Shown here in pieces: positions 45,459-55,343 of a DNA stretch of 64,000 bases (positions within the stretch are counted from its first letter, which is position 1; each line of letters starts with the position of its first letter). The stretch is taken from the NCBI RefSeq assembly GCF_055900595.2, contig NZ_CM148325.1. One strand, 5' to 3'. Both the position numbers and the translations under genes were made by a program. The notes beneath the pieces were generated by a model. That model searched no databases and was not told the DNA's origin. It saw only the letters and a program-made list of their open reading frames with translations.

Positions 45459-45497
45459 CAGTGCACTGGTAGCTGTAAAGCCTGGGGCGGTAGCGTG
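45459..45497 (+). promoter_or_regulatory. JUMPStart element with ops site (GGCGGTAGCGTG at 45486..45497) for the O-antigen operon
   Basis: Near-identical to the wza-leader JUMPStart at 20711..20750. Confidence 0.8.
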
Positions 45498-45505
45498 TCT
45501 AGGGG

Positions 45506-46796
45506 CAGGGAAAGATTATCAGAAGTACACTTTTTGTACTAAATAATTCGCATTTTATGTTCAAAAATTGAGATATCCCTCATTACCTAAAACTGTTTTT
45601 CACAGCTTATATATGATCAAATACTCCTTGCTTAAATAAGGAGAACAAAATGGAACTTAAAAAATTGATGGAACATATTTCTGTTATTCCCGATTACAGA
45701 CAAGCCTGGAAAGTGGAATATAATTTGTCGGATATTCTACTGTTGACTATTTGTGCCGTCATTTCTGGTGCAGAAGGCTGGGAAGATATAGAGGATTTTG
45801 GGGAAACACATCTCGATTTTTTGAAGCAATATGGTGATTTTGAAAATGGTATTCCTGTTCACGATACCATTGCCAGAGTTGTATCCTGTATCAGTCCTGC
45901 AAAATTTCACGAGTGCTTTATTAACTGGATGCGTGACTGCCATTCTTCAGATGATAAAGACGTCATTGCAATTGATGGAAAAACGCTCCGGCACTCTTAT
46001 GACAAGAGTCGCCGCAGGGGAGCGATTCATGTCATTAGTGCGTTCTCAACAATGCACAGTCTGGTCATCGGACAGATCAGGACGGATGAGAAATCCAATG
46101 AGATTACAGCTATCCCTGAACTTATTAACATGCTGGATATTAAAGGAAAAATCATCACAACTGATGCGATGGGTTGCCAGAAAGATATTGCAGAGAAGAT
46201 ACAAAAACAGGGAGGTGATTATTTATTCGCTGTAAAAGGAAACCAGGGGCGGCTAAATAAAGCCTTTGAGGAAAAATTTCCGCTGAAAGAATTAAATAAT
46301 CCAGAGCATGACAGTTACGCAATGAGTGAAAAGAGTCACGGCAGAGAAGAAATCCGTCTTCATATTGTTTGCGATGTCCCTGATGAACTTATTGATTTCA
46401 CGTTTGAATGGAAAGGACTGAAAAAATTATGTGTGGCAGCCTCCTTTCGGTCAATAATAGCAGAACAAAAGAAAGAGCCAGAAATGACGGTCAGATATTA
46501 TATCAGTTCTGCTGATTTAACCGCAGAGAAGTTCGCCACAGCAATCCGAAACCACTGGCACGTGGAGAATAAGCTGCACTGGCGTCTGGACGTGGTAATG
46601 AATGAAGACGACTGCAAAATAAGAAGAGGAAATGCAGCAGAATTATTTTCAGGGATACGGCACATCGCTATTAATATTTTGACGAATGATAAGGTATTCA
46701 AGGCAGGGTTAAGACGTAAGATGCGAAAAGCAGCCATGGACAGAAACTATCTGGCGTCAGTCCTTGCGGGGAGCGGGCTTTCGTAATCTTGCCCTG
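45506..46796 (+). mobile_element. ISAs1-family insertion sequence (H-repeat-like), about 1.29 kb
   Basis: Imperfect terminal inverted repeats: cagggaaagatta at 45506..45518, and cagggcaagatta as the reverse complement of 46784..46796. Encloses a single intact transposase ORF. Boundaries approximate. Confidence 0.75.
45650..46786 (+). CDS. ISAs1-family transposase (H-repeat-associated protein, 378 aa)
   Basis: ATG at 45650 with RBS aaggag. The sequence [50 protein letters not shown]... is characteristic of H-repeat/YhhI-family DDE transposases. Confidence 0.85.
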
Positions 46797-46864: not shown

Positions 46865-48109
46865 TTGAGCAAAACTAAACTAAATGTTCTTTACCTTGCA
46901 ATAAGTCAGGGTGCCAATTACCTACTGCCATTATTAATTTTTCCTTATCTTGTTAGAGTCATTGGTGTATCGAATTTTGGTGATCTGAGTTTTTCATTGA
47001 TAACTATACAAGTGTTGTTAATGGTTGTTGAATATGGTTTTGGATATAGTGGGACAAGAGAAATAGCACTAAATAACGATAAAAAATACCATTCTGAATT
47101 TTTTTGCGGTGTGGTGCTTGCTCGTTTTATATTAATGCTAATTGCAGCTATTATACTCATAATACTCTGTTTTTTTTATGTTTTTAACGACGTTAAGTAT
47201 TTGTTATGTGTTGGTTTTCTGTCCGTAATTGCAGGTGTTTTCAATCCAAATTGGTTTTTGCAAGGTAAGGAAATGATGAGTGTGATGGCTGTGCTGTCAC
47301 TATTTTCACGAGGCATAGCAGTCGTTGCAGTTTATCTAATTATAAAACCCGCAACGCCGATGTACATCAGTGCCTTATTATTGAGCATGCCATATATTTT
47401 GTATTCATTCTGTGGCGTTGCCTACTTACTTATTATCAAGGAGATTTTTTTATGTAGGCCACCGATAAAGAAAATTCAAGTAATTTTAAAAAATGGATTT
47501 CATTTTTTTTGTTCAACACTTGCGACTAGTGCATACACAATGTTGACCCCTCTTGTATTGGGTGGCGTATCTGGAAAGTTTGATGTAGGCATCTTTAACT
47601 CAGCTAACATGATCAAACAAGGTTTGGCTGGACTTGCATCACCATTAGTCCAAGCTTTTTATCCAAGAATTAACATTTTGCAAAGAGAGAATCCATATAT
47701 TGCAAACTTAAAATCTAGAATGATTCTTAAATACTTGCTTGTTTTTTACATGGCTTTAGCAATGCCATTTTTACTTTTTGCCAACCAATTATCATTATTA
47801 ATATTCGGCATGAAAGGTGAAGTAATTGCAGGTGCAATGCAATTAATGACATTGCTTCCTATATTCATAGGTTTTAATACAGTTGTCGGGTTACTTGTAT
47901 TAGTACCTAATGGGATGCAAAAACAGTATTTCAAATCTATTTTCCTAGGAACTATTACTTGTTTAAGCATAGTTTATCCAGCATGTAAATATTATGGAGC
48001 AACGGGTGCGATTGTGAGTCTTATTGTAGCTGAAATTTTCGTTGGCATGGGAATGCTTAAACAATTCATTAAAGTAAATAAAACTGTATGTAGGCCTCAT
48101 AAATTATGA
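46865..48109 (+). CDS. wzx: O-antigen flippase Wzx (about 414 aa); start codon uncertain (TTG at 46865)
   Basis: Polytopic membrane protein, low GC; first gene after the JUMPStart/IS. No in-frame ATG upstream. Confidence 0.8.
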   Translation: MSKTKLNVLYLAISQGANYLLPLLIFPYLVRVIGVSNFGDLSFSLITIQVLLMVVEYGFGYSGTREIALNNDKKYHSEFFCGVVLARFILMLIAAIILIILCFFYVFNDVKYLLCVGFLSVIAGVFNPNWFLQGKEMMSVMAVLSLFSRGIAVVAVYLIIKPATPMYISALLLSMPYILYSFCGVAYLLIIKEIFLCRPPIKKIQVILKNGFHFFCSTLATSAYTMLTPLVLGGVSGKFDVGIFNSANMIKQGLAGLASPLVQAFYPRINILQRENPYIANLKSRMILKYLLVFYMALAMPFLLFANQLSLLIFGMKGEVIAGAMQLMTLLPIFIGFNTVVGLLVLVPNGMQKQYFKSIFLGTITCLSIVYPACKYYGATGAIVSLIVAEIFVGMGMLKQFIKVNKTVCRPHKL

Positions 48110-49092
48110 ATATCTCGGTAATAATATCTGTTTGGAAACGCCCAGTTCAATTAGAATTGATTCTCTCTGAGCTCGATTCTCAGGCTAAAGACAATAGTCT
48201 ACACCTAGAAGTAATTGTTTCCGATAGTCATAGTGGTAAAGAAATTGATGATGTAGTTGCTGATAATATTCATAAAAAGAAAAATATTAATATTATCCAT
48301 CAACATACTAAAAATATACTCTCCGCTAAGCGCAATTTCGGAGCATCCCTAGCCCATGGGGATTATTTAATATTTCTTGATGATGATTGTATACCCGCAA
48401 GTGGATATATATCATCGTTGCTGAACTATTTAAAAAAAATGAATAGTAAAAGCGTATTATGTGGGGAAGTTAGATTCGAAAATGAACTCATTGAGACCAG
48501 CAATTACTATCGCTACAGGAACTCTTTACACCCTAAGTTTAGTGATAGTCATGATATCTCTATGAATGCCTGGACTTTTGTCGCAATGAATTGTGTTCTT
48601 GATAGAAAGGCATTTTCATCAGGTATAGTTTCATATAATGAAAATTTTATTGGTTATGGTTGTGAAGATCATGAGTTTGGGTGGCAACTTGAAAAAAATG
48701 ACTTCAAAATTATTTTTGCTGATTTTAAAATATTACATCACGAATACAGTGGCGATATAGAAGGATATACAAAAAAAATTCGTGCTACAGCACGTGATGG
48801 TATGAATGTATTAAGCAAAGTAAGACCTGAAATGTTTTCTACTAATAAAAAATTATTCCTGGTTGAGAAAATATTTAGTAAACACAAAACGTTTAGTAAA
48901 ATATGCCAATCAATATTTTTCAATAAATTTATTTTTAAAAAAATAATACAATTTTTAAAAAAAACAGATGCAAATAAAAAACTCTATTTCCCAATTCTTT
49001 ACAGATATGTGTTGATTTCGGCATATATACATGGTATTGGAGAGCGTGGCACCTCAAAAACAGATGAATTGCTTAAGAACTGGTATATATAG
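48106..49092 (+). CDS. Family-2 glycosyltransferase of the O-antigen cluster (328 aa)
   Basis: ATG at 48106 overlapping the wzx stop; GT2-like N-terminus with DDD motif (IFLDDDCIP). Confidence 0.8.
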   Translation: MNISVIISVWKRPVQLELILSELDSQAKDNSLHLEVIVSDSHSGKEIDDVVADNIHKKKNINIIHQHTKNILSAKRNFGASLAHGDYLIFLDDDCIPASGYISSLLNYLKKMNSKSVLCGEVRFENELIETSNYYRYRNSLHPKFSDSHDISMNAWTFVAMNCVLDRKAFSSGIVSYNENFIGYGCEDHEFGWQLEKNDFKIIFADFKILHHEYSGDIEGYTKKIRATARDGMNVLSKVRPEMFSTNKKLFLVEKIFSKHKTFSKICQSIFFNKFIFKKIIQFLKKTDANKKLYFPILYRYVLISAYIHGIGERGTSKTDELLKNWYI

Positions 49093-49141
49093 ATGATGCT
49101 ATCTTCATTTATTAAGACATTTGTATGGAAGGTAAAAGACA

Positions 49142-50320
49142 ATGAAGTATAATGCATTGATGGCTTTTTTATTATTTTTTGTTGTTTTTTTTAGATTGTC
49201 GCTGATAATACCTTTCTTATATTTGGCATTTATTCCTGCATTTTTTGGTATTATGTATTTAGTGCGTAATTTTATGATTACTATGGGCAATGGATTGGTA
49301 TCTATAGATCGTAAAAATTTGTTGCTGTTATCTATATTCATAATTATTTTTTTATTTTGTATGGTTTTCGATTCGTTTCAAAAAAGCCAATCTTTTCAAA
49401 GCTATTTCACCGTTAGATTATTTATGTTGTTTTTATTTTCATTTGTTCCTGCGTATTATTTAGTAAATAGATTCATAAAGGGTGACTTGAAATTAATGGA
49501 GCGAATATTAGTGTATTCTCTCTGGGTTCAAATAGTTATTTTTTTTGGTATGTATATAAGTCCAGAGTTAAAAAGATTGTTATATACTTTCTTTGGTATG
49601 TCTGACTCAGTTAATCTTTGGGAACAAAATGCTAAAGTAAGAGGATTTGGGTTGTCGGGTGAAATAAATTTCATGACACCATTTTTGATGATCTATATGT
49701 CATTTTTTATGATGAAAAGGCGTTATGCTTTAATTACTTTAATTTGTCTTACTCAAATCGTAAATTCTAACATGGCTGTGATTGCAGCCATTATTGGTAT
49801 CGGTTGCTCTAGACTTAATATTAATATAAAAATTGCAACAGTATTGGTTTTGGGAGTTTTAGTTTATAGCTTAGGAGCGGTGTTCTTCCCTCGATTTTAT
49901 GATGAGTTCGTTTCTGGAGATGGCACAAGAACTCTGGATATCTTATTACAGCAACATGTGTTTGTTGTAGGTAATTTAGATTTTTTTAATATTATATTTG
50001 GATTACAGCAAAACATATCTTCATCAATCCCCGATATTAAACAAAGTTCGGATATGGGCTGGGTTATACTGTTTAATTACGGTGGGTTAACATTTATTAC
50101 ACTCTTTTTATTTTTAATCTTTACTATTTCTATTGCGACATTTGGAATGACATATCAAGCAATTATATGGATGTTAATTGGGATAATTTTCAATACCAAA
50201 GGTTTAGTTTTAGGATCTAACGGCTATTTCTTTCTATCTTTTATATATATGTTTTTGAATAGAGTAACACTTAGTGGACAGAGTTCAATTACTAATAAGT
50301 TAGGCCAAGTAAGTAAATAG
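49142..50320 (+). CDS. wzy: O-antigen polymerase Wzy (392 aa)
   Basis: Highly hydrophobic multi-TM protein, very AT-rich; position between the GT and sugar-synthesis genes. Confidence 0.75.
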   Translation: MKYNALMAFLLFFVVFFRLSLIIPFLYLAFIPAFFGIMYLVRNFMITMGNGLVSIDRKNLLLLSIFIIIFLFCMVFDSFQKSQSFQSYFTVRLFMLFLFSFVPAYYLVNRFIKGDLKLMERILVYSLWVQIVIFFGMYISPELKRLLYTFFGMSDSVNLWEQNAKVRGFGLSGEINFMTPFLMIYMSFFMMKRRYALITLICLTQIVNSNMAVIAAIIGIGCSRLNINIKIATVLVLGVLVYSLGAVFFPRFYDEFVSGDGTRTLDILLQQHVFVVGNLDFFNIIFGLQQNISSSIPDIKQSSDMGWVILFNYGGLTFITLFLFLIFTISIATFGMTYQAIIWMLIGIIFNTKGLVLGSNGYFFLSFIYMFLNRVTLSGQSSITNKLGQVSK

Positions 50321-50361
50321 CTTCCAGAGTATATTTGTCAATAATTTGAGGTTCGGTTATT

Positions 50362-51396
50362 ATGTTTTCATCTAAAACACTGTTAATTACTGGTGGTACT
50401 GGCTCTTTCGGGAATGCTGTATTAAATAGATTTCTTGATACAGATATTGCAGAAATCCGTATATTTAGTCGTGATGAAAAAAAACAAGATGATATGCGGA
50501 AAAAATACAATAATCAAAAATTAAAGTTCTATATTGGTGATGTCAGAGATTACCGTAGTATTTTGAATGCGACTCGCGGTGTTGATTTTATATATCATGC
50601 AGCGGCACTTAAGCAAGTTCCATCATGTGAATTTCATCCTATGGAAGCCGTTAAAACTAATATCCTTGGTACGGAAAATGTTCTTGAAGCAGCTATAGCG
50701 AATGAAGTGAAGAGGGTTGTATGCCTAAGTACTGATAAAGCTGTATACCCGATTAACGCAATGGGTATTTCAAAAGCTATGATGGAAAAGGTCATGGTCG
50801 CGAAATCCCGTAATGTTGATCGCAATAAAACAGTAATATGTGGTACCCGTTATGGGAATGTTATGGCATCTCGCGGTTCAGTTATTCCATTATTTGTTGA
50901 TCTTATTAGAGCGGGCAAGCCACTCACAATAACTGATCCTAATATGACCCGCTTTATGATGACTCTTGAGGATGCGGTAGATTTAGTTCTTTATGCGTTT
51001 GAACATGGTAATAATGGTGATATCTTTGTGCAAAAAGCACCTGCAGCAACTATTGACACATTAGCTATTGCTTTAAAGGAATTACTAAATGTTCCAGACC
51101 ATCCGGTAAATGTCATTGGAACGCGTCATGGCGAGAAATTATATGAAGCTCTACTTAGTCGTGAGGAAATGATCGCTGCTATAGATATGGGTGATTATTA
51201 CCGTGTCCCGCCAGATCTTCGTGACCTTAATTATGGCAAATATGTTGAGCAAGGTGATAGCCGAATATCTGAAATAGAAGATTATAACTCTCATAATACT
51301 CAACGGTTAGATGTTGAAGGCATGAAAGAGCTCTTGCTAAAATTAGCCTTTATTCGAGCAATTCGTGCTGGTGAAAAATATAATCTGGATTCATGA
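50362..51396 (+). CDS. fnlA: UDP-GlcNAc 4,6-dehydratase/5-epimerase FnlA (344 aa)
   Basis: N-terminus MFSSKTLLITGGTGSFG; CapE/WbjB-type SDR. Confidence 0.88.
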   Translation: MFSSKTLLITGGTGSFGNAVLNRFLDTDIAEIRIFSRDEKKQDDMRKKYNNQKLKFYIGDVRDYRSILNATRGVDFIYHAAALKQVPSCEFHPMEAVKTNILGTENVLEAAIANEVKRVVCLSTDKAVYPINAMGISKAMMEKVMVAKSRNVDRNKTVICGTRYGNVMASRGSVIPLFVDLIRAGKPLTITDPNMTRFMMTLEDAVDLVLYAFEHGNNGDIFVQKAPAATIDTLAIALKELLNVPDHPVNVIGTRHGEKLYEALLSREEMIAAIDMGDYYRVPPDLRDLNYGKYVEQGDSRISEIEDYNSHNTQRLDVEGMKELLLKLAFIRAIRAGEKYNLDS

Positions 51397-51397
51397 T

Positions 51398-52501
51398 ATG
51401 AAAATATTAGTTACTGGTGCAAATGGTTTTATTGGTCGTAATTTATGTTTGAGGCTTGAGGAACTTGGTTATAAAGATCTTATTAGAATCGATCGAGAAT
51501 CAACGAAGCAAGATCTTGAACAAGGCTTACAGGATGCCGATTTTATTTATCACTTAGCTGGTATCAATAGACCTAAGACTGATGATGAGTTTATTTCTGG
51601 AAACAGTGATTTAACAAAGCATATAGTTGAGTATCTCCTTTCTATTGGTAAGAATACACCAATTATGCTAAGTTCTTCGATACAAGCTGAACTTAATAAT
51701 GCTTATGGGGTTAGCAAAGCTGTAGCTGAAAGCTATGTCCAAAAATATGCTGCTGCTAGTGGTTCTTCGTATTATATTTTCAGATATCCAAACGTTTTTG
51801 GTAAATGGTGTAAGCCAAACTATAATTCTTTTATAGCAACTTTTTGCTACAATATTTCCAATGATATTGAGATTACTATCAATGATGCATCAGCGCCAGT
51901 CAAACTGGTCTATATTGATGATGTTTGTACTGATGCTATAGCTCTTCTCTCTGGGACGGTTGAAAGCGGATATAAAGTTGTTGCACCAATTTATTCAACA
52001 ACAGTTGGTGAAGTTGCAGAATTAATTTATAGCTTCAAAAATAGCCGTTCCACCCTGATCACAGAGGCTGTCGGGGCGGGATTTACCCGTGCATTGTATT
52101 CTACATGGCTGAGTTATTTACCAGCAGAGAAGTTTGCGTACAAGGTACCTTTTTATGGGGATGCCCGCGGAGTCTTTTGTGAGATGTTGAAAACGCCTTC
52201 AGCGGGGCAGTTTTCATTTTTTACTGCTCACCCTGGTATTACGCGTGGCGGACATTACCATCACAGTAAAAATGAGAAGTTTTTGGTCATTCGAGGTCAG
52301 GCATGCTTTAAATTTGAACATGTGATTACCGGTGAGCGATATGAACTGCAAGTTTCATCGGGTGAGTTTAAGATTGTTGAAACAGTTCCTGGTTGGACAC
52401 ATGACATTACAAATATTGGAACTGATGAATTAATAGTCATGCTCTGGGCAAATGAAATTTTCAACCGTGATGAGCCCGATACTATTGCGAGACCTCTATA
52501 A
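51398..52501 (+). CDS. fnlB: UDP-L-FucNAc pathway reductase/3-epimerase FnlB (367 aa)
   Basis: ATG at 51398 (MKILVTGANGFIGRNL...), 2 nt after the fnlA stop; C-terminal cupin-like extension. Confidence 0.85.
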   Translation: MKILVTGANGFIGRNLCLRLEELGYKDLIRIDRESTKQDLEQGLQDADFIYHLAGINRPKTDDEFISGNSDLTKHIVEYLLSIGKNTPIMLSSSIQAELNNAYGVSKAVAESYVQKYAAASGSSYYIFRYPNVFGKWCKPNYNSFIATFCYNISNDIEITINDASAPVKLVYIDDVCTDAIALLSGTVESGYKVVAPIYSTTVGEVAELIYSFKNSRSTLITEAVGAGFTRALYSTWLSYLPAEKFAYKVPFYGDARGVFCEMLKTPSAGQFSFFTAHPGITRGGHYHHSKNEKFLVIRGQACFKFEHVITGERYELQVSSGEFKIVETVPGWTHDITNIGTDELIVMLWANEIFNRDEPDTIARPL

Positions 52502-53631
52502 TGAAAAAATTAAAAGTTATGTCTGTTGTTGGAACCCGTCCTGAGATTATCCGTTTGTCGAGGGTTCTTGCTAAGTTTGATGAATACTGCGAGCATATTA
52601 TTGTCCATACTGGTCAAAATTATGATTACGAATTAAATGAAGTGTTCTTCAATGACTTGGGTGTTCGAAAACCTGATTATTTTTTAAATGCAGCGGGTAA
52701 AAATGCGGCGGAAACCATTGGCCAGGTTATTATTAAGGTAGATGAAGTATTAGAAATCGAAAAACCTGAAGCAATACTGGTATTGGGCGATACGAATTCA
52801 TGTATTTCTGCCATTCCGGCCAAACGCCGTAAAGTGCCTATATTTCATATGGAAGCAGGTAACCGGTGTTTCGATCAACGCGTGCCTGAAGAAACCAACA
52901 GACGTATTGTTGACCATACGGCTGATATCAATATGACCTACAGTGATATTGCTCGTGAATATCTCTTGGCTGAAGGTATCCCAGCTGATCGGATCATAAA
53001 AACTGGTAGCCCTATGTTTGAGGTTCTTTCATATTATATGCCCCAAATTGATGGTTCAGATGTGCTATCGCGTTTGAATCTACAGTCTGGTGAGTTTTTT
53101 GTAGTAAGTGCGCATCGTGAAGAGAATGTTGATTCGCCAAAACAGCTCGTAAAGCTTGCGAACATTCTAAATACTGTTGCTGAAAAATATAATCTTCCAG
53201 TTATTGTCTCCACACACCCAAGGACACGTAACCGAATCCGTGAGCAAGGAATTGAATTTCATTCAAATATAAATCTACTAAAACCATTGGGTTTCCATGA
53301 TTATAACCACTTGCAGAAGAACTCACGAGCTGTGCTTTCAGATAGCGGTACTATCACTGAAGAGTCATCCATCATGAATTTCCCAGCGGTAAACATCCGG
53401 GAAGCGCATGAGCGTCCGGAAGGCTTTGAGGAAGCATCCGTCATGATGGTGGGGTTAGAGTGTGAACGCGTATTACAAGCGCTGGATATTCTGGCAACAC
53501 AACCGAGAGGTGAAGTCCGTCTTTTACGTCAGGTTAGTGATTACAGCATGCCAAATGTGTCGGATAAAGTTGTCAGAATTGTTCACTCTTACACAGATTA
53601 TGTTAAGAGAGTCGTCTGGAAAGAATATTGA
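52501..53631 (+). CDS. fnlC: UDP-N-acetylglucosamine/UDP-L-PneNAc 2-epimerase FnlC (376 aa)
   Basis: ATG at 52501 overlapping the fnlB stop; non-hydrolysing 2-epimerase fold (MKKLKVMSVVGTRPEIIRL...). Confidence 0.88.
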   Translation: MKKLKVMSVVGTRPEIIRLSRVLAKFDEYCEHIIVHTGQNYDYELNEVFFNDLGVRKPDYFLNAAGKNAAETIGQVIIKVDEVLEIEKPEAILVLGDTNSCISAIPAKRRKVPIFHMEAGNRCFDQRVPEETNRRIVDHTADINMTYSDIAREYLLAEGIPADRIIKTGSPMFEVLSYYMPQIDGSDVLSRLNLQSGEFFVVSAHREENVDSPKQLVKLANILNTVAEKYNLPVIVSTHPRTRNRIREQGIEFHSNINLLKPLGFHDYNHLQKNSRAVLSDSGTITEESSIMNFPAVNIREAHERPEGFEEASVMMVGLECERVLQALDILATQPRGEVRLLRQVSDYSMPNVSDKVVRIVHSYTDYVKRVVWKEY

Positions 53632-54842
53632 TGAAACTTGCTTTAATCATAGATGATTACCTGCCCAACAGTACTCGTGTTGGTGCAAAAATGTTTCATG
53701 AACTTGCTCAAGAATTTATCCAGCGTGGGCACGATGTTACGGTAATTACTCCTGGTACGGGCATGCAAGAAGAGATTTCTTTTGATACCTTTCAGGGGGT
53801 AAAAACATGGCGTTTTAAAAGCGGGCCGCTCAAGGATGTAAGTAAAATTCAGCGAGCGATCAATGAAACGCTTTTGTCCTATCGGGCGTGGAAAGCCATC
53901 AAAAAATGGGTAAAAAAAGAGACCTTTGAGGGGGTGATTTATTATTCACCTTCCATATTCTGGGGGCATTTAGTTAAAAAAATTAAAGCTCGTTGCCAAT
54001 GTCCTGCTTATCTTATTTTAAGAGATATGTTTCCACAATGGGTAATTGATGCAGGAATGCTTAATGCTGGTTCCCCAATAGAACGCTACTTTCGTCTTTT
54101 TGAAAAAATATCTTATCGTCAGGCAAATTTTATTGGACTTATGTCTGATAAGAATCTTGATGTTTTTCGGAAAGATAATAAAGGCTATCCGTGCGAAGTT
54201 TTGCGTAATTGGGCCTCCCTAACACCAACGATCATACCCAAGGATTATATACCACTACGTAAGCGACTTGGCCTAGAGGATAAAACCATTTTCTTCTATG
54301 GTGGAAACATAGGTCATGCACAGGACATGACAAACTTGATGCGACTTGTGAGAAACATGGCAGCATATCCTCAAGCTCATTTCCTATTTATTGGCCAGGG
54401 GGATGAAGTTGAATTAATTAATTCATTAGCCTCTGAGTGGGCATTGACGAATTTCACCTATTTGCCCTCGGTTAATCAGGATGAATTTAAGTTCATTTTG
54501 TCGGAAATGGATATCGGCTTGTTTTCTCTTTCCGCTAGACACTCTTCCCATAATTTTCCTGGTAAGTTATTAGGCTATATGGTTCAGTCGCTACCTATTT
54601 TAGGTAGCGTAAATGCCGGAAATGATTTGCTCGACATTGTCAATCAAAATAATGCCGGATTAATCCATGTCAATGGTGAGGATGATAAATTATGTCAATC
54701 TGCGCTATTAATGTTGCATGATATTGATGTGCGCCGGCAACTTGGTTCGGGGGCGAATATATTGTTGAAAGAACAATTCTCCGTTGAGTCTGCGGCACAG
54801 ACGATAGAAATGAGGTTGGAGGCATGCAATGCGATTAATTGA
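53631..54842 (+). CDS. wbuB: L-FucNAc transferase WbuB (GT1/GT4, about 403 aa)
   Basis: ATG at 53631 overlapping the fnlC stop (TGATG); GT4-type glycosyltransferase following fnlABC. Confidence 0.82.
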   Translation: MKLALIIDDYLPNSTRVGAKMFHELAQEFIQRGHDVTVITPGTGMQEEISFDTFQGVKTWRFKSGPLKDVSKIQRAINETLLSYRAWKAIKKWVKKETFEGVIYYSPSIFWGHLVKKIKARCQCPAYLILRDMFPQWVIDAGMLNAGSPIERYFRLFEKISYRQANFIGLMSDKNLDVFRKDNKGYPCEVLRNWASLTPTIIPKDYIPLRKRLGLEDKTIFFYGGNIGHAQDMTNLMRLVRNMAAYPQAHFLFIGQGDEVELINSLASEWALTNFTYLPSVNQDEFKFILSEMDIGLFSLSARHSSHNFPGKLLGYMVQSLPILGSVNAGNDLLDIVNQNNAGLIHVNGEDDKLCQSALLMLHDIDVRRQLGSGANILLKEQFSVESAAQTIEMRLEACNAIN

Positions 54843-55227
54843 TAATGACCAACTCGACGAATTATATGATCAAGCCGGGCAATCGGAACGTTTACGTTCC
54901 CACCTTATGATGCACGGCTCGCATCAAGAAAAGGTACAGCGTTTACTTATTGCATTAGTAAAGGGCAGCTATGTTGAACCGCATTATCACGAACTTCCTC
55001 ATCAGTGGGAAATGTTCATTGTTATGGAGGGGCAACTTAAGGTTTGTTTATATGGTAGAAATGGTGAGGTTATAAAGCAATTTATAGCAGGAGATAATAC
55101 TGGAATAAGCATTGTGGAGTTTTCTCCGGGCGATATACACAGTGTCGAATGCCTATCTCCGCGTGCTCTTATGGTGGAAGTTAAGGAGGGGCCATTTGAC
55201 CCTTCTTTTGCAAAATCGTTCGTGTGA
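54829..55227 (+). CDS. wbuC: WbuC, small cupin-like protein of unknown function (132 aa)
   Basis: ATG at 54829 overlapping the wbuB 3' end; conserved partner of fnlABC/wbuB clusters. Confidence 0.75.
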   Translation: MRLIDNDQLDELYDQAGQSERLRSHLMMHGSHQEKVQRLLIALVKGSYVEPHYHELPHQWEMFIVMEGQLKVCLYGRNGEVIKQFIAGDNTGISIVEFSPGDIHSVECLSPRALMVEVKEGPFDPSFAKSFV

Positions 55228-55343
55228 TGCTTGTCTAAAGTACATCTTCTGCTATCTACCCAAGCTAAACCTGAGTTAACATCCATACCATATTTCAAGC
55301 TGCGCATATCTTGCGCGGTGACCACCCCTGACAGGAGTAAACA

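Follow-up and report, generated by a model that had tools for sequence, protein, structure and literature searches.

Three enzymes are reportedly enough in vitro for the synthesis of UDP-L-FucNAc and UDP-L-QuiNAc, as described by Kneidinger et al. in 2003 and Mulrooney et al. in 2005, and to our knowledge no fourth activity is required for either nucleotide sugar. One described system to which WbuC can be compared is the C-terminal Zn cupin domain of CapF/FnlB/WbjC (PF14667, Polysacc_synt_C; PDB 2ZKL, 3ST7, 3VHR, and 4YRD). In these proteins, the cupin domain is the reported C3-epimerase half of a bifunctional enzyme, with His290 of CapF serving as a Zn ligand (PMC5393024; PMC3699295). WbuC itself belongs to an already catalogued family (NCBIfam TIGR04366; Pfam DUF6016, PF19480), and our findings hold nothing unexpected to a specialist, the family being known. 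The first-pass annotation regarded the function of wbuC as undefined, in agreement with the published literature on wbuC, DUF6016, and TIGR04366, in which no functional study turned up.

In the window, a stretch of 64,000 nucleotides from contig NZ_CM148325.1 (assembly GCF_055900595.2), wbuC is the last gene of the Escherichia coli O15 O-antigen cluster, which runs galF-ops-ISAs1-wzx-GT2-wzy-fnlA-fnlB-fnlC-wbuB-wbuC-gnd (Table 1). The product is 100% identical to the RefSeq CDS WP_021547562.1, annotated as "WbuC family cupin fold metalloprotein." The upstream genes comprise the UDP-L-FucNAc module and wbuB, whose HG5/WbuB glycosyltransferase group has been described (PMC7685785). PF14667 spans residues 265-374 of FnlB, indicating that the reductase of this locus has its own cupin domain. 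The ORF had been placed with its start inside the 3' end of wbuB, and the coordinates bear this out, with an overlap of 14 nt because wbuB stops at position 54842. This arrangement suggests translational coupling, and many orthologous loci show a comparable overlap (e.g., L004-L009, L015, L017, and L021), with the WbuB match running ~10 nt beyond the WbuC start. A terminator scan found no intrinsic terminator between wbuC and gnd.

Table 1. Features of the wbuC region, in window coordinates
Feature	Position	Strand	Description	Basis
fnlA-fnlB-fnlC	50362..53631	+	UDP-L-FucNAc synthesis genes	HMM matches
fnlA	50362-51396	+		TIGR04130 FnlA, 757 bits
fnlB	51398-52501	+	SDR plus C-terminal cupin domain	NF047837, 552 bits
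fnlC	52501-53631	+		TIGR00236 wecB-type, 221 bits
wbuB	53631..54842	+	GT4 glycosyltransferase, directly 5' of wbuC, L-FucNAc transferase group	Pfam Glycos_transf_1, Glyco_transf_4; RefSeq annotation
GGAGG	54818..54822	+	Shine-Dalgarno-like, inside wbuB, 6 nt 5' of the wbuC ATG	Read from sequence
wbuC CDS	54829..55227	+	WbuC-family cupin	ORF listing, 132 aa plus stop, ATG start
wbuC start/wbuB end overlap	54829..54842	+	14 nt	ORF coordinates
N-terminal conserved segment	54889..54942	+	R21-R38 with R21, R23, H29, Q37	96-100% conserved across family
Cupin motif 1	54964..55032	+	G46-G68 GSYVEPHYHELPHQWEMFIVMEG, predicted ligands H52, H54, E61	Alignment of 101 sequences
Cupin motif 2	55111..55152	+	Residues 95-108 IVEFSPGDIHSVEC, predicted ligand H104	Alignment of 101 sequences

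Our profile search matched WbuC to TIGR04366 ("WbuC family cupin fold metalloprotein") at 143 bits (E = 4.6e-42; cutoff 42), with residues 3-131 aligned to model positions 1-127 of 132. The O15 protein resembles this family in having the length of the 132-position model and in ending an fnlABC-wbuB set. Homologue searching returned 336 close homologues and 1096 cluster representatives at E <= 1e-3. The dN/dS of wbuC against orthologues from other genera was ~0.04-0.07, similar to that of fnlB (0.08), with the wbuC estimate resting on only three pairs because synonymous sites were saturated in most. These values indicate purifying selection, and the gene is genuine far beyond chance. A chance frame or a decaying, non-functional remnant might be imagined, given that the ORF is small, overlaps its upstream neighbor, has no assigned role, and has been passed over by the O-antigen literature, including the main review of E. 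coli O-antigens, which does not mention it once. However, the strength of the HMM score (E = 4.6e-42), the full-length homologues in the hundreds, the invariant catalytic residues, a dN/dS of ~0.05, and the confident predicted fold effectively refute this idea, leaving it next to no probability.

The structure prediction that had been proposed as a check produced a confident result: the AlphaFold model of WbuC is a cupin (double-stranded beta-helix) barrel with an N-terminal helix, at a pLDDT of 97.3. Across 101 diverse family members, down to ~30% identity, R23, H52, H54, E61, G68, H104, and G121 were invariant, and R21, H29, Q37, Y48, E117, and K119 were at least 90% conserved. This pattern predicts that H52, H54, E61, and H104 form a 3-His/1-Glu site, from which we infer binding of a divalent metal. 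The His/Glu-rich, cupin-like motif that had been recognized earlier, EPHYHELPHQWEMFIV at residues 50-65, thus stands with respect to H52, H54, and E61, which are invariant, and falls with respect to H58, which is not. The first-pass annotation had not included a second motif (PGDIHSVE), which supplies the fourth predicted ligand, H104.

Several comparisons link WbuC to the CapF/FnlB cupin domain. In a Foldseek search with the WbuC model, CapF had the highest query TM-score (0.66), and alignment of the WbuC profile with the FnlB-cupin profile (hhalign) returned E = 1e-5 with a probability of 61%. In the hhalign column map, H52/H54/E61/G68 of WbuC align to H286/H288/E293/G300 of FnlB, and a phmmer alignment equates FnlB H286/H288/E293 with CapF H288/H290/E295; H104 aligns to FnlB H335, which is CapF H337. 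WbuC therefore carries the His/His/Glu/His set at the positions of the CapF Zn site (H288/H290/E295/H337). R21 pairs with R257 of the FnlB cupin and Q37 with its Q271, so that the metal tetrad and both of these residues all fall on positions that are 100% conserved in FnlB. In fnl loci lacking WbuC, the only weak matches of the WbuC HMM were FnlB cupin domains. There are also differences. The two cupins share only ~18-21% identity, the spacing from H-x-H to Glu is six residues in WbuC versus four in CapF/FnlB, and R23, H29, Y48, E117, and K119, conserved in WbuC, have no counterpart in FnlB. WbuC is a free-standing single domain of 132 aa, whereas the CapF/FnlB cupin is fused to an N-terminal SDR 4-reductase domain. 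PF14667 scored WbuC at 16.5 bits (E = 0.009), under the gathering threshold of 28.7, and reached E < 0.01 in only 13 of the 101 family members.

Other cupins were structurally about as near to WbuC as CapF, including thiol dioxygenases, quercetinase, oxalate oxidase, and sugar isomerases; the structural neighbors also included KdgF, a cupin processing unsaturated sugars, and aldose/ketose isomerases. A PDB sequence search found no solved close relative of WbuC. The nearest solved proteins by sequence profile were not CapF but Mn oxalate decarboxylases, bicupins with a best E of ~1e-5. Oxalate decarboxylase/oxidase, Ni-quercetinase, cupin-type phosphoglucose/phosphomannose isomerases, and cysteine dioxygenase, all 3-His/1-Glu or 3-His cupins, are 10-20% identical to WbuC, none of their Pfam families matches it above threshold, and no genomic context ties it to their substrates. 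Several specific assignments were rejected. The profile of RmlC-like NDP-sugar 3,5-epimerases (PF00908) gave no match, and that of FdtA-type ketoisomerases (PF05523) matched 8 of the 101 family members weakly and O15 WbuC not at all; both enzyme types use metal-independent His/Tyr or His catalytic residues, whereas WbuC has a full metal tetrad. A thiol dioxygenase (CDO/ADO) would be expected to combine a 3-His iron site lacking Glu with a match to the family HMM, a combination that WbuC does not show: CDO lacks the Glu ligand, whereas WbuC has E61.

The genomic distribution of the family divides into two forms. O15 WbuC belongs to a short subgroup (131-138 aa) that lacks the ~30-aa C-terminal tail (W-A-P-x-E plus helix) of most family members. 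Our locus census was queried with a 15-sequence WbuC alignment and is therefore biased toward closer relatives. It detected fnlA/fnlC or qnlA/qnlC homologues at 46 loci, and at every one of these WbuC lies just 3' of the module, in most cases behind a WbuB-like GT4. The 46 loci come from Enterobacterales, Vibrionales, Alteromonadales, Sphingomonadales, an Alistipes MAG, and an Erysipelotrichia MAG, and 40 or more loci have the fnlABC-wbuB-wbuC order of the O15 window. The earlier expectations that the ORF would be conserved in related clusters and would typically accompany fnlABC-wbuB are thus upheld, since every short-form WbuC in the census loci lies behind fnlABC or qnlABC, in most cases with wbuB in between; in one locus (L026), it directly follows fnlC. 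WbuC occurs with both reductase types, the cupin-bearing FnlB and the cupin-less RmlD-like form. Among E. coli genomes, a wbuC-like gene was found in 395 and an fnlC-like gene in 421, and both of the divergent fnlC-like E. coli loci that were inspected also have WbuC. Searching six-frame translations with the family HMM showed that WbuC is absent from the qnl loci of Vibrio cholerae, Providencia rettgeri, and Vibrio vulnificus, and fnl loci in Cupriavidus, Giesbergeria, and a MAG likewise lack it. WbuC is therefore optional in fnl and qnl loci. The qnl reductase of V. cholerae, P. rettgeri, and V. vulnificus is RmlD-like and has no cupin domain; these loci, lacking both, exclude WbuC as an obligate C3-epimerase cupin for cupin-less reductases.

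Long-form relatives (153-172 aa) make up most of the family and are mostly free-standing. Clustering of their neighborhoods gave no shared neighbors, no Pfam family occurred in more than two of the 78 flanking genes surveyed, and no sugar genes were seen among the genes flanking free-standing copies; the conserved chemistry therefore need not involve L-FucNAc/L-QuiNAc-type sugars. The long forms include "orf477/wbuC" 3' of blaCTX-M-15/-55 and "wbuC" 3' of mcr-9, both mobilized as passengers from Kluyvera- or Buttiauxella-type chromosomes. Both were in the 101-sequence alignment and share the NCBIfam family and the invariant residues with O15 WbuC; they differ from it in their length of 158 aa, in being only 31-32% identical, and in being unlinked to fnl. 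Two fusions were discarded as Rosetta-stone evidence. The only SDR+WbuC fusion found (P0225) was a singleton on a 1.8-kb contig, and a WbuC+NUDIX fusion (P0228) was a singleton on a contig of <2 kb; their partners are a YfcH-like SDR and a MutT-like NUDIX, and therefore neither points to nucleotide sugars.

Our best guess, offered with low confidence, is that WbuC may be an accessory enzyme, a metal-dependent epimerase/isomerase with UDP-4-keto-6-deoxy-HexNAc intermediates as its substrates; both substrate and reaction we infer by analogy. It would be a single-domain, translationally coupled, non-essential enzyme of UDP-2-acetamido-2,6-dideoxy-L-hexose pathways, serving L-FucNAc at the O15 locus and L-QuiNAc/L-RhaNAc elsewhere. 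Its metal would bind the 4-keto and 3-hydroxyl oxygens of the UDP-4-keto-6-deoxy-HexNAc made by FnlA/QnlA and stabilize an enediolate, allowing epimerization or isomerization adjacent to the keto group, in the manner reported for the CapF/FnlB Zn cupin. What the cell would gain is not a new sugar but a faster flux or the recovery of off-pathway keto-sugar by-products. The CapF/FnlB likeness, the invariant site, the fnl/qnl context, and the dN/dS count in favor of an accessory enzyme. Counting against it are the sufficiency of three enzymes, the cupin domain already present in FnlB of the O15 locus, the absence of WbuC from some qnl/fnl loci, and the long form unlinked to sugar genes, along with the WbuC-specific residues, the sub-threshold PF14667 score, the structural nearness of other cupins, and a sequence profile nearest to Mn oxalate decarboxylases.

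Several of these points can be read differently. WbuC could be a metal-dependent cupin (e.g., dioxygenase, decarboxylase, hydratase, or lyase) whose substrate is a common small molecule with no relation to nucleotide-sugar intermediates, the short form being a captured copy that travels with fnlABC-wbuB and has no part in O-antigen structure. We consider this rather unlikely, even though most family members stand free of conserved neighbors or nearby glycan genes, paralogues are carried as chromosomal passengers next to Kluyvera-derived blaCTX-M and to mcr-9, and the conserved catalytic set does not differ between linked and unlinked forms. In structure and sequence, WbuC also has cysteine, ergothioneine, and ADO dioxygenases, Ni-quercetinase, and Mn oxalate decarboxylase/oxidase among its nearest neighbors. 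Moreover, the O15 repeat unit presumably contains three sugars, all of which the other cluster genes would account for, leaving the unit explained without wbuC. A mere traveler, however, would not readily explain why the position of WbuC is kept in several orders and phyla despite deep divergence (39-86% identity) and with two different pathway variants, why translational coupling is retained, why dN/dS is as low as 0.04-0.07, or why long-form copies have apparently been recruited independently into fnl/qnl loci (L042-L045, L050, L071, L079, L080, and L087).

The near-constant placement of wbuC directly after a WbuB-type GT4 gene, overlapping its stop codon, and the similar divergence rates of WbuB and WbuC, both faster than those of FnlA and FnlC, would also fit a role for WbuC beside the L-FucNAc/L-QuiNAc glycosyltransferase as a non-catalytic or regulatory partner, such as a small metal-binding adaptor that stabilizes WbuB or hands over the UDP-sugar. 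This role appears improbable: L026, L036, and L071 have WbuC without an adjacent WbuB orthologue, and the invariant 3-His/1-Glu set, with conserved Arg, Lys, Tyr, and Glu in free-standing homologues of 30% identity, argues for catalysis. WbuB orthologues (61-62% identity) without WbuC in V. cholerae and Providencia speak against it as well and rule out an obligate partnership. Still less probable is an action after UDP-L-FucNAc synthesis, in which WbuC would clear by-products of the FnlC/WecB-type 2-epimerase (2-acetamido-glycal plus UDP) or interconvert finished UDP-L-HexNAc epimers. Linkage to fnl as well as qnl modules, which have FnlA-like and FnlC-like enzymes in common and differ in reductase type, would suit such a step, as would the L026 arrangement directly after fnlC and the KdgF-type cupins and aldose/ketose isomerases among the structural neighbors; yet the idea leans on general knowledge of the WecB mechanism, and free-standing long forms have no WecB-type neighbor.

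L-FucNAc-containing O-antigens occur in major pathogens (O26, O145, O4, O25a, and O15), and O-antigen clusters are transplanted for glycoconjugate/OMV vaccines with wbuC included by default (PMC11705740). Whether wbuC affects yield or fidelity bears on whether engineers can drop the gene. Because a paralogue adjoins blaCTX-M and mcr-9, few "unknown" genes are sequenced as often in clinical microbiology as those of this family, and a biochemical activity would fill a small but very visible annotation gap. A bolder form of the accessory-enzyme proposal, which we regard as doubtful, is that bacterial 2-acetamido-2,6-dideoxy-L-hexose pathways have an unrecognized fourth enzyme in WbuC, which would work as a stand-alone, metal-dependent counterpart of the CapF cupin epimerase and would steer or salvage UDP-4-keto-6-deoxy-HexNAc intermediates. 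If this were true, the ubiquitous orf477/wbuC copies beside blaCTX-M and mcr-9 would, by extension, encode an enzyme of nucleotide-sugar (envelope precursor) metabolism and would not be inert cargo.

Over the query, the O-antigen locus in E. coli strain M160133 was 100% identical to the window. Its RefSeq gene order, namely galF, an ISAs1 transposase, O15-family wzx, GT2, O15-family wzy, fnlA, wbjC (fnlB), wecB-type fnlC, GT4, WP_021547562.1 (named "WbuC family cupin fold metalloprotein"), gnd, ugd, and wzzB, agreed with HMM scans of the window, which recovered FnlA, FnlB (NF047837, 552 bits, plus a PF14667 domain at the C-terminus), FnlC (TIGR00236), the GT4 gene wbuB, and gnd. The wbuC region of M160133 is 100% identical to that of the window; RefSeq annotates the M160133 fnlA as a frameshifted pseudogene, and the window copy is intact. 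The ISAs1-family transposase gene has the JUMPStart/ops element near galF on one side and wzx on the other, and thus lies within the O-antigen operon leader, and M160133 carries it in the identical place. The G+C content falls to 0.30-0.36 over window positions 47000-52000 (wzx, GT2, wzy, fnlA, and fnlB), is ~0.40-0.42 over fnlC, wbuB, and wbuC, and reaches ~0.47 on either side, around galF and gnd, consistent with a mosaic of blocks with differing origins.

As the first-pass annotation had proposed, a 132-aa ORF begins inside the 3' end of wbuB; its coordinates were exact, and because wbuB ends at 54842, the overlap is 14 nt. No intrinsic terminator was predicted in the wbuC-gnd interval. Compared with orthologues from other genera, wbuC showed a dN of 0.07-0.12, a dS of >1.3, and a dN/dS of 0.04-0.07 (only three pairs being unsaturated), on par with the ~0.08 of fnlB. 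This ratio indicates a genuine gene under purifying selection, and the prospect of a spurious ORF is negligible. An antisense ORF overlapping both the spacer before gnd and the 3' half of wbuC probably reflects a chance reading frame.

Coordinates of wbuC, neighboring features of the window, and features of compared loci
Feature	Coordinates	Strand	Remark
wbuC ORF	54829-55227	+	ATG start, 132 aa
GGAGG	54818-54822	+	6 nt ahead of wbuC ATG
Antisense ORF	55002-55325	-	107 aa, GTG start
ops 8-mer GGCGGTAG	45486-45493		
ISAs1-family transposase gene	45650-46786	+	378 aa; NF033564, 416 bits
fnlA, window	50362-51396		344 aa; TIGR04130, 757 bits
fnlA, M160133	L001 7764-8797		pseudogene
Plasmid "wbuC" copies	L002 4001-4477; L003 5001-5477		long form
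WbuC, E. coli UTME-3	L087 9348-9866		172 aa, long form
SDR-WbuC fusion P0225	L084 241-1575		444 aa
WbuC-NUDIX fusion P0228	L085 66-1049		327 aa
ORF after WbuB orthologue, Providencia rettgeri	L091 9239-9769		176 aa

By its profile scores, WbuC is a bona fide member of the curated TIGR04366/DUF6016 family, as RefSeq also annotates it: it scored 143 bits on NCBIfam TIGR04366 (cupin_WbuC; cutoff 42), Pfam DUF6016 covered its N-terminal half, and Cupin_2, Cupin_1, DUF1971, and PF14667 matched below threshold. A collection of 5.8 billion proteins held 336 close homologues, and 1096 representatives of 50% clusters matched at E <= 1e-3. In an alignment of 101 family sequences reaching down to ~30% identity, R23, H52, H54, E61, G68, H104, and G121 were invariant, while A16, R21, H29, Q37, Y48, P51, E117, K119, and P122 were at least 90% conserved. 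The H52-x-H54-x6-E61 motif together with H104 corresponds to the classic cupin motif-1/motif-2 ligands, a predicted 3-His/1-Glu metal site. The His/Glu-rich motif initially flagged as cupin-like, EPHYHELPHQWEMFIV (residues 50-65), thus holds three of the invariant residues, but its H58 is unconserved. Structure prediction, which had been suggested as a check, bore out the fold: the AlphaFold2 model built from the 101-sequence alignment (pLDDT 97.3, pTM 0.88) starts with a helix and continues as a barrel of nine strands.

No close relative of WbuC was found among solved structures; the best match to the family profile was to Mn oxalate decarboxylases (E ~2e-5), followed by the TehB N-domain, FdtA ketoisomerase, and L-ribose isomerase. 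In S. aureus, FnlB has the orthologue CapF, whose C-terminal cupin domain contains a Zn that is essential and reportedly carries out epimerization before C4 is reduced by the SDR domain (PMC5393024, PMC3699295). The window FnlB cupin domain aligned to CapF residues 248-365 at E = 3.5e-30, and WbuC aligned to a profile of 158 FnlB cupins at E = 1.1e-5 (probability 61%). The aligned columns, all 100% conserved in FnlB, pair WbuC H52, H54, E61, and H104 with FnlB H286, H288, E293, and H335 (CapF H288, H290, E295, and H337), and R21, Q37, and G68 with FnlB R257, Q271, and G300. In contrast, FnlB lacks counterparts to WbuC R23, H29, Y48, E117, and K119. These WbuC-only residues and the sub-threshold PF14667 score indicate that WbuC, although like the CapF cupin in fold and predicted metal site, belongs to a separate family.

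An alignment of 15 WbuC sequences, used to scan GTDB with each species represented by a single genome, gave 80 loci, which were searched by tblastn with the window FnlA, FnlB, FnlC, and WbuB. The expectation that wbuC accompanies fnlABC-wbuB clusters held well: all assessable matches of at least 39% identity lay just downstream of a fnlA-like and fnlC-like pair, usually directly after a WbuB-like GT4 and often with the same start/stop overlap. Two seeming exceptions (L027 and L037) are truncated where their contigs end; in V. furnissii (L026) WbuC directly follows fnlC, and in Shewanella (L036) other genes intervene. FnlB is missing from eight linked loci. In one of these, L016, the fnlA-like and fnlC-like genes stand ~900 nt apart, and the gene between them specifies a 291-aa RmlD-like SDR that has no cupin domain. 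By inference the remaining seven are built alike and would then represent the qnlABC (L-QuiNAc/L-RhaNAc) arrangement. The order FnlA-like, cupin-less RmlD-like reductase of ~290 aa, FnlC-like, GT4, and WbuC was assigned to L016, L019, L031, L032, L034, L042, L043, L050, L087, and L089. The association therefore extends to 2-acetamido-2,6-dideoxy-L-hexose pathways in general. For E. coli O antigens, the corresponding glycosyltransferases have been assigned to one homology group moving L-FucNAc, L-FucNAm, or L-QuiNAc onto GlcNAc (PMC7685785). By blastn, 395 of 5,426 complete E. coli genomes contained wbuC-like DNA and 421 contained fnlC-like DNA. Two divergent fnlC-like loci were inspected, and in both a WbuC annotation follows the GT4; in one, a qnl-type cluster, the protein is a long form of 172 aa.

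Extending every match to its stop codon separated two length classes sharing the conserved catalytic set. All assessable short forms (131-138 aa) were fnl/qnl-linked. Long forms (153-172 aa), which bear an additional C-terminal W-A-P-x-E segment and helix, occurred within nine fnl/qnl loci (L042-L045, L050, L071, L079, L080, and E. coli L087) and in ~35 free-standing copies, around which no common neighbors were found and no Pfam family was enriched among 78 flanking genes. The plasmid genes called wbuC (PMC8386418) beside blaCTX-M-55 and mcr-9.1 encode long forms of 158 aa that share just 31-32% identity with the window WbuC; tblastn located such copies, many truncated, on 2,680 PLSDB plasmids. 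On the simplest reading, fnl/qnl cassettes took up a free-standing long-form enzyme that subsequently lost its tail, and the UTME-3 protein, a long form in a qnl-type O-antigen cluster, looks like an evolutionary intermediate linking free-standing long forms to short cluster-linked ones. Two metagenomic proteins, joining WbuC to a YfcH-like SDR (P0225) or a MutT-like NUDIX domain (P0228), occurred once each on contigs of <2 kb and could be genuine fusions or assembly/gene-calling artefacts.

Loci were also sampled independently of WbuC. Sampling through RmlD-like QnlB reductases recovered Aeromonas media with WbuC and V. cholerae, Providencia rettgeri, and V. vulnificus without it; sampling through FnlB cupin domains recovered Cupriavidus, Giesbergeria, and one MAG, all lacking it. 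The family HMM on six-frame translations upheld these absences, matching only FnlB cupin domains weakly (E = 0.007-0.04). V. cholerae and Providencia retain WbuB orthologues at 61-62% identity, which rules out WbuC as an obligate WbuB partner, and the three WbuC-less qnl loci rule it out as a stand-in for a missing FnlB cupin. A looser role assisting WbuB, next to which the gene usually lies, is unlikely. In Providencia rettgeri, an unrelated ORF occupies the expected place of WbuC; it weakly matches the C-terminal part of SDR/3-beta-HSD models and may be a gene remnant.

The metal tetrad and the Arg, Arg, His, Gln, Tyr, Glu, and Lys residues conserved in very distant homologues argue for an enzyme. 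Linkage to two pathway variants sharing the FnlA-type 4-keto intermediate, combined with the one-to-one metal-site match to the CapF/FnlB epimerase domain, suggests metal-assisted enediolate epimerization or isomerization. Our best single guess, a tentative one, is that WbuC may act as a dispensable helper epimerase/isomerase on UDP-4-keto-6-deoxy-HexNAc. Confidence is low because WbuC is optional, a cupin domain is already present in FnlB, most family members lack a sugar context, and CapF is no nearer in structure than dioxygenase-type cupins. WbuC could instead be a captured enzyme whose substrate is unrelated, a possibility we regard with some doubt, and an enzyme acting after the pathway or on a by-product seems improbable. 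Work by Kneidinger et al. in 2003 and Mulrooney et al. in 2005, which PMC3699295 and PMC7685785 cite, reportedly showed that UDP-L-FucNAc and UDP-L-QuiNAc can be made in vitro with just three enzymes.

The first-pass annotation called the function of WbuC undefined, and the searched literature indeed gave no reported function; in the main review of E. coli O antigens the protein goes unmentioned. The family itself is already known (TIGR04366/DUF6016). To it, the present analysis adds the invariant predicted 3-His/1-Glu site and its map onto CapF, the wider association with qnl-type clusters, the optional nature of WbuC, and the split between short and long forms, which ties WbuC to the "orf477" of AMR plasmids.
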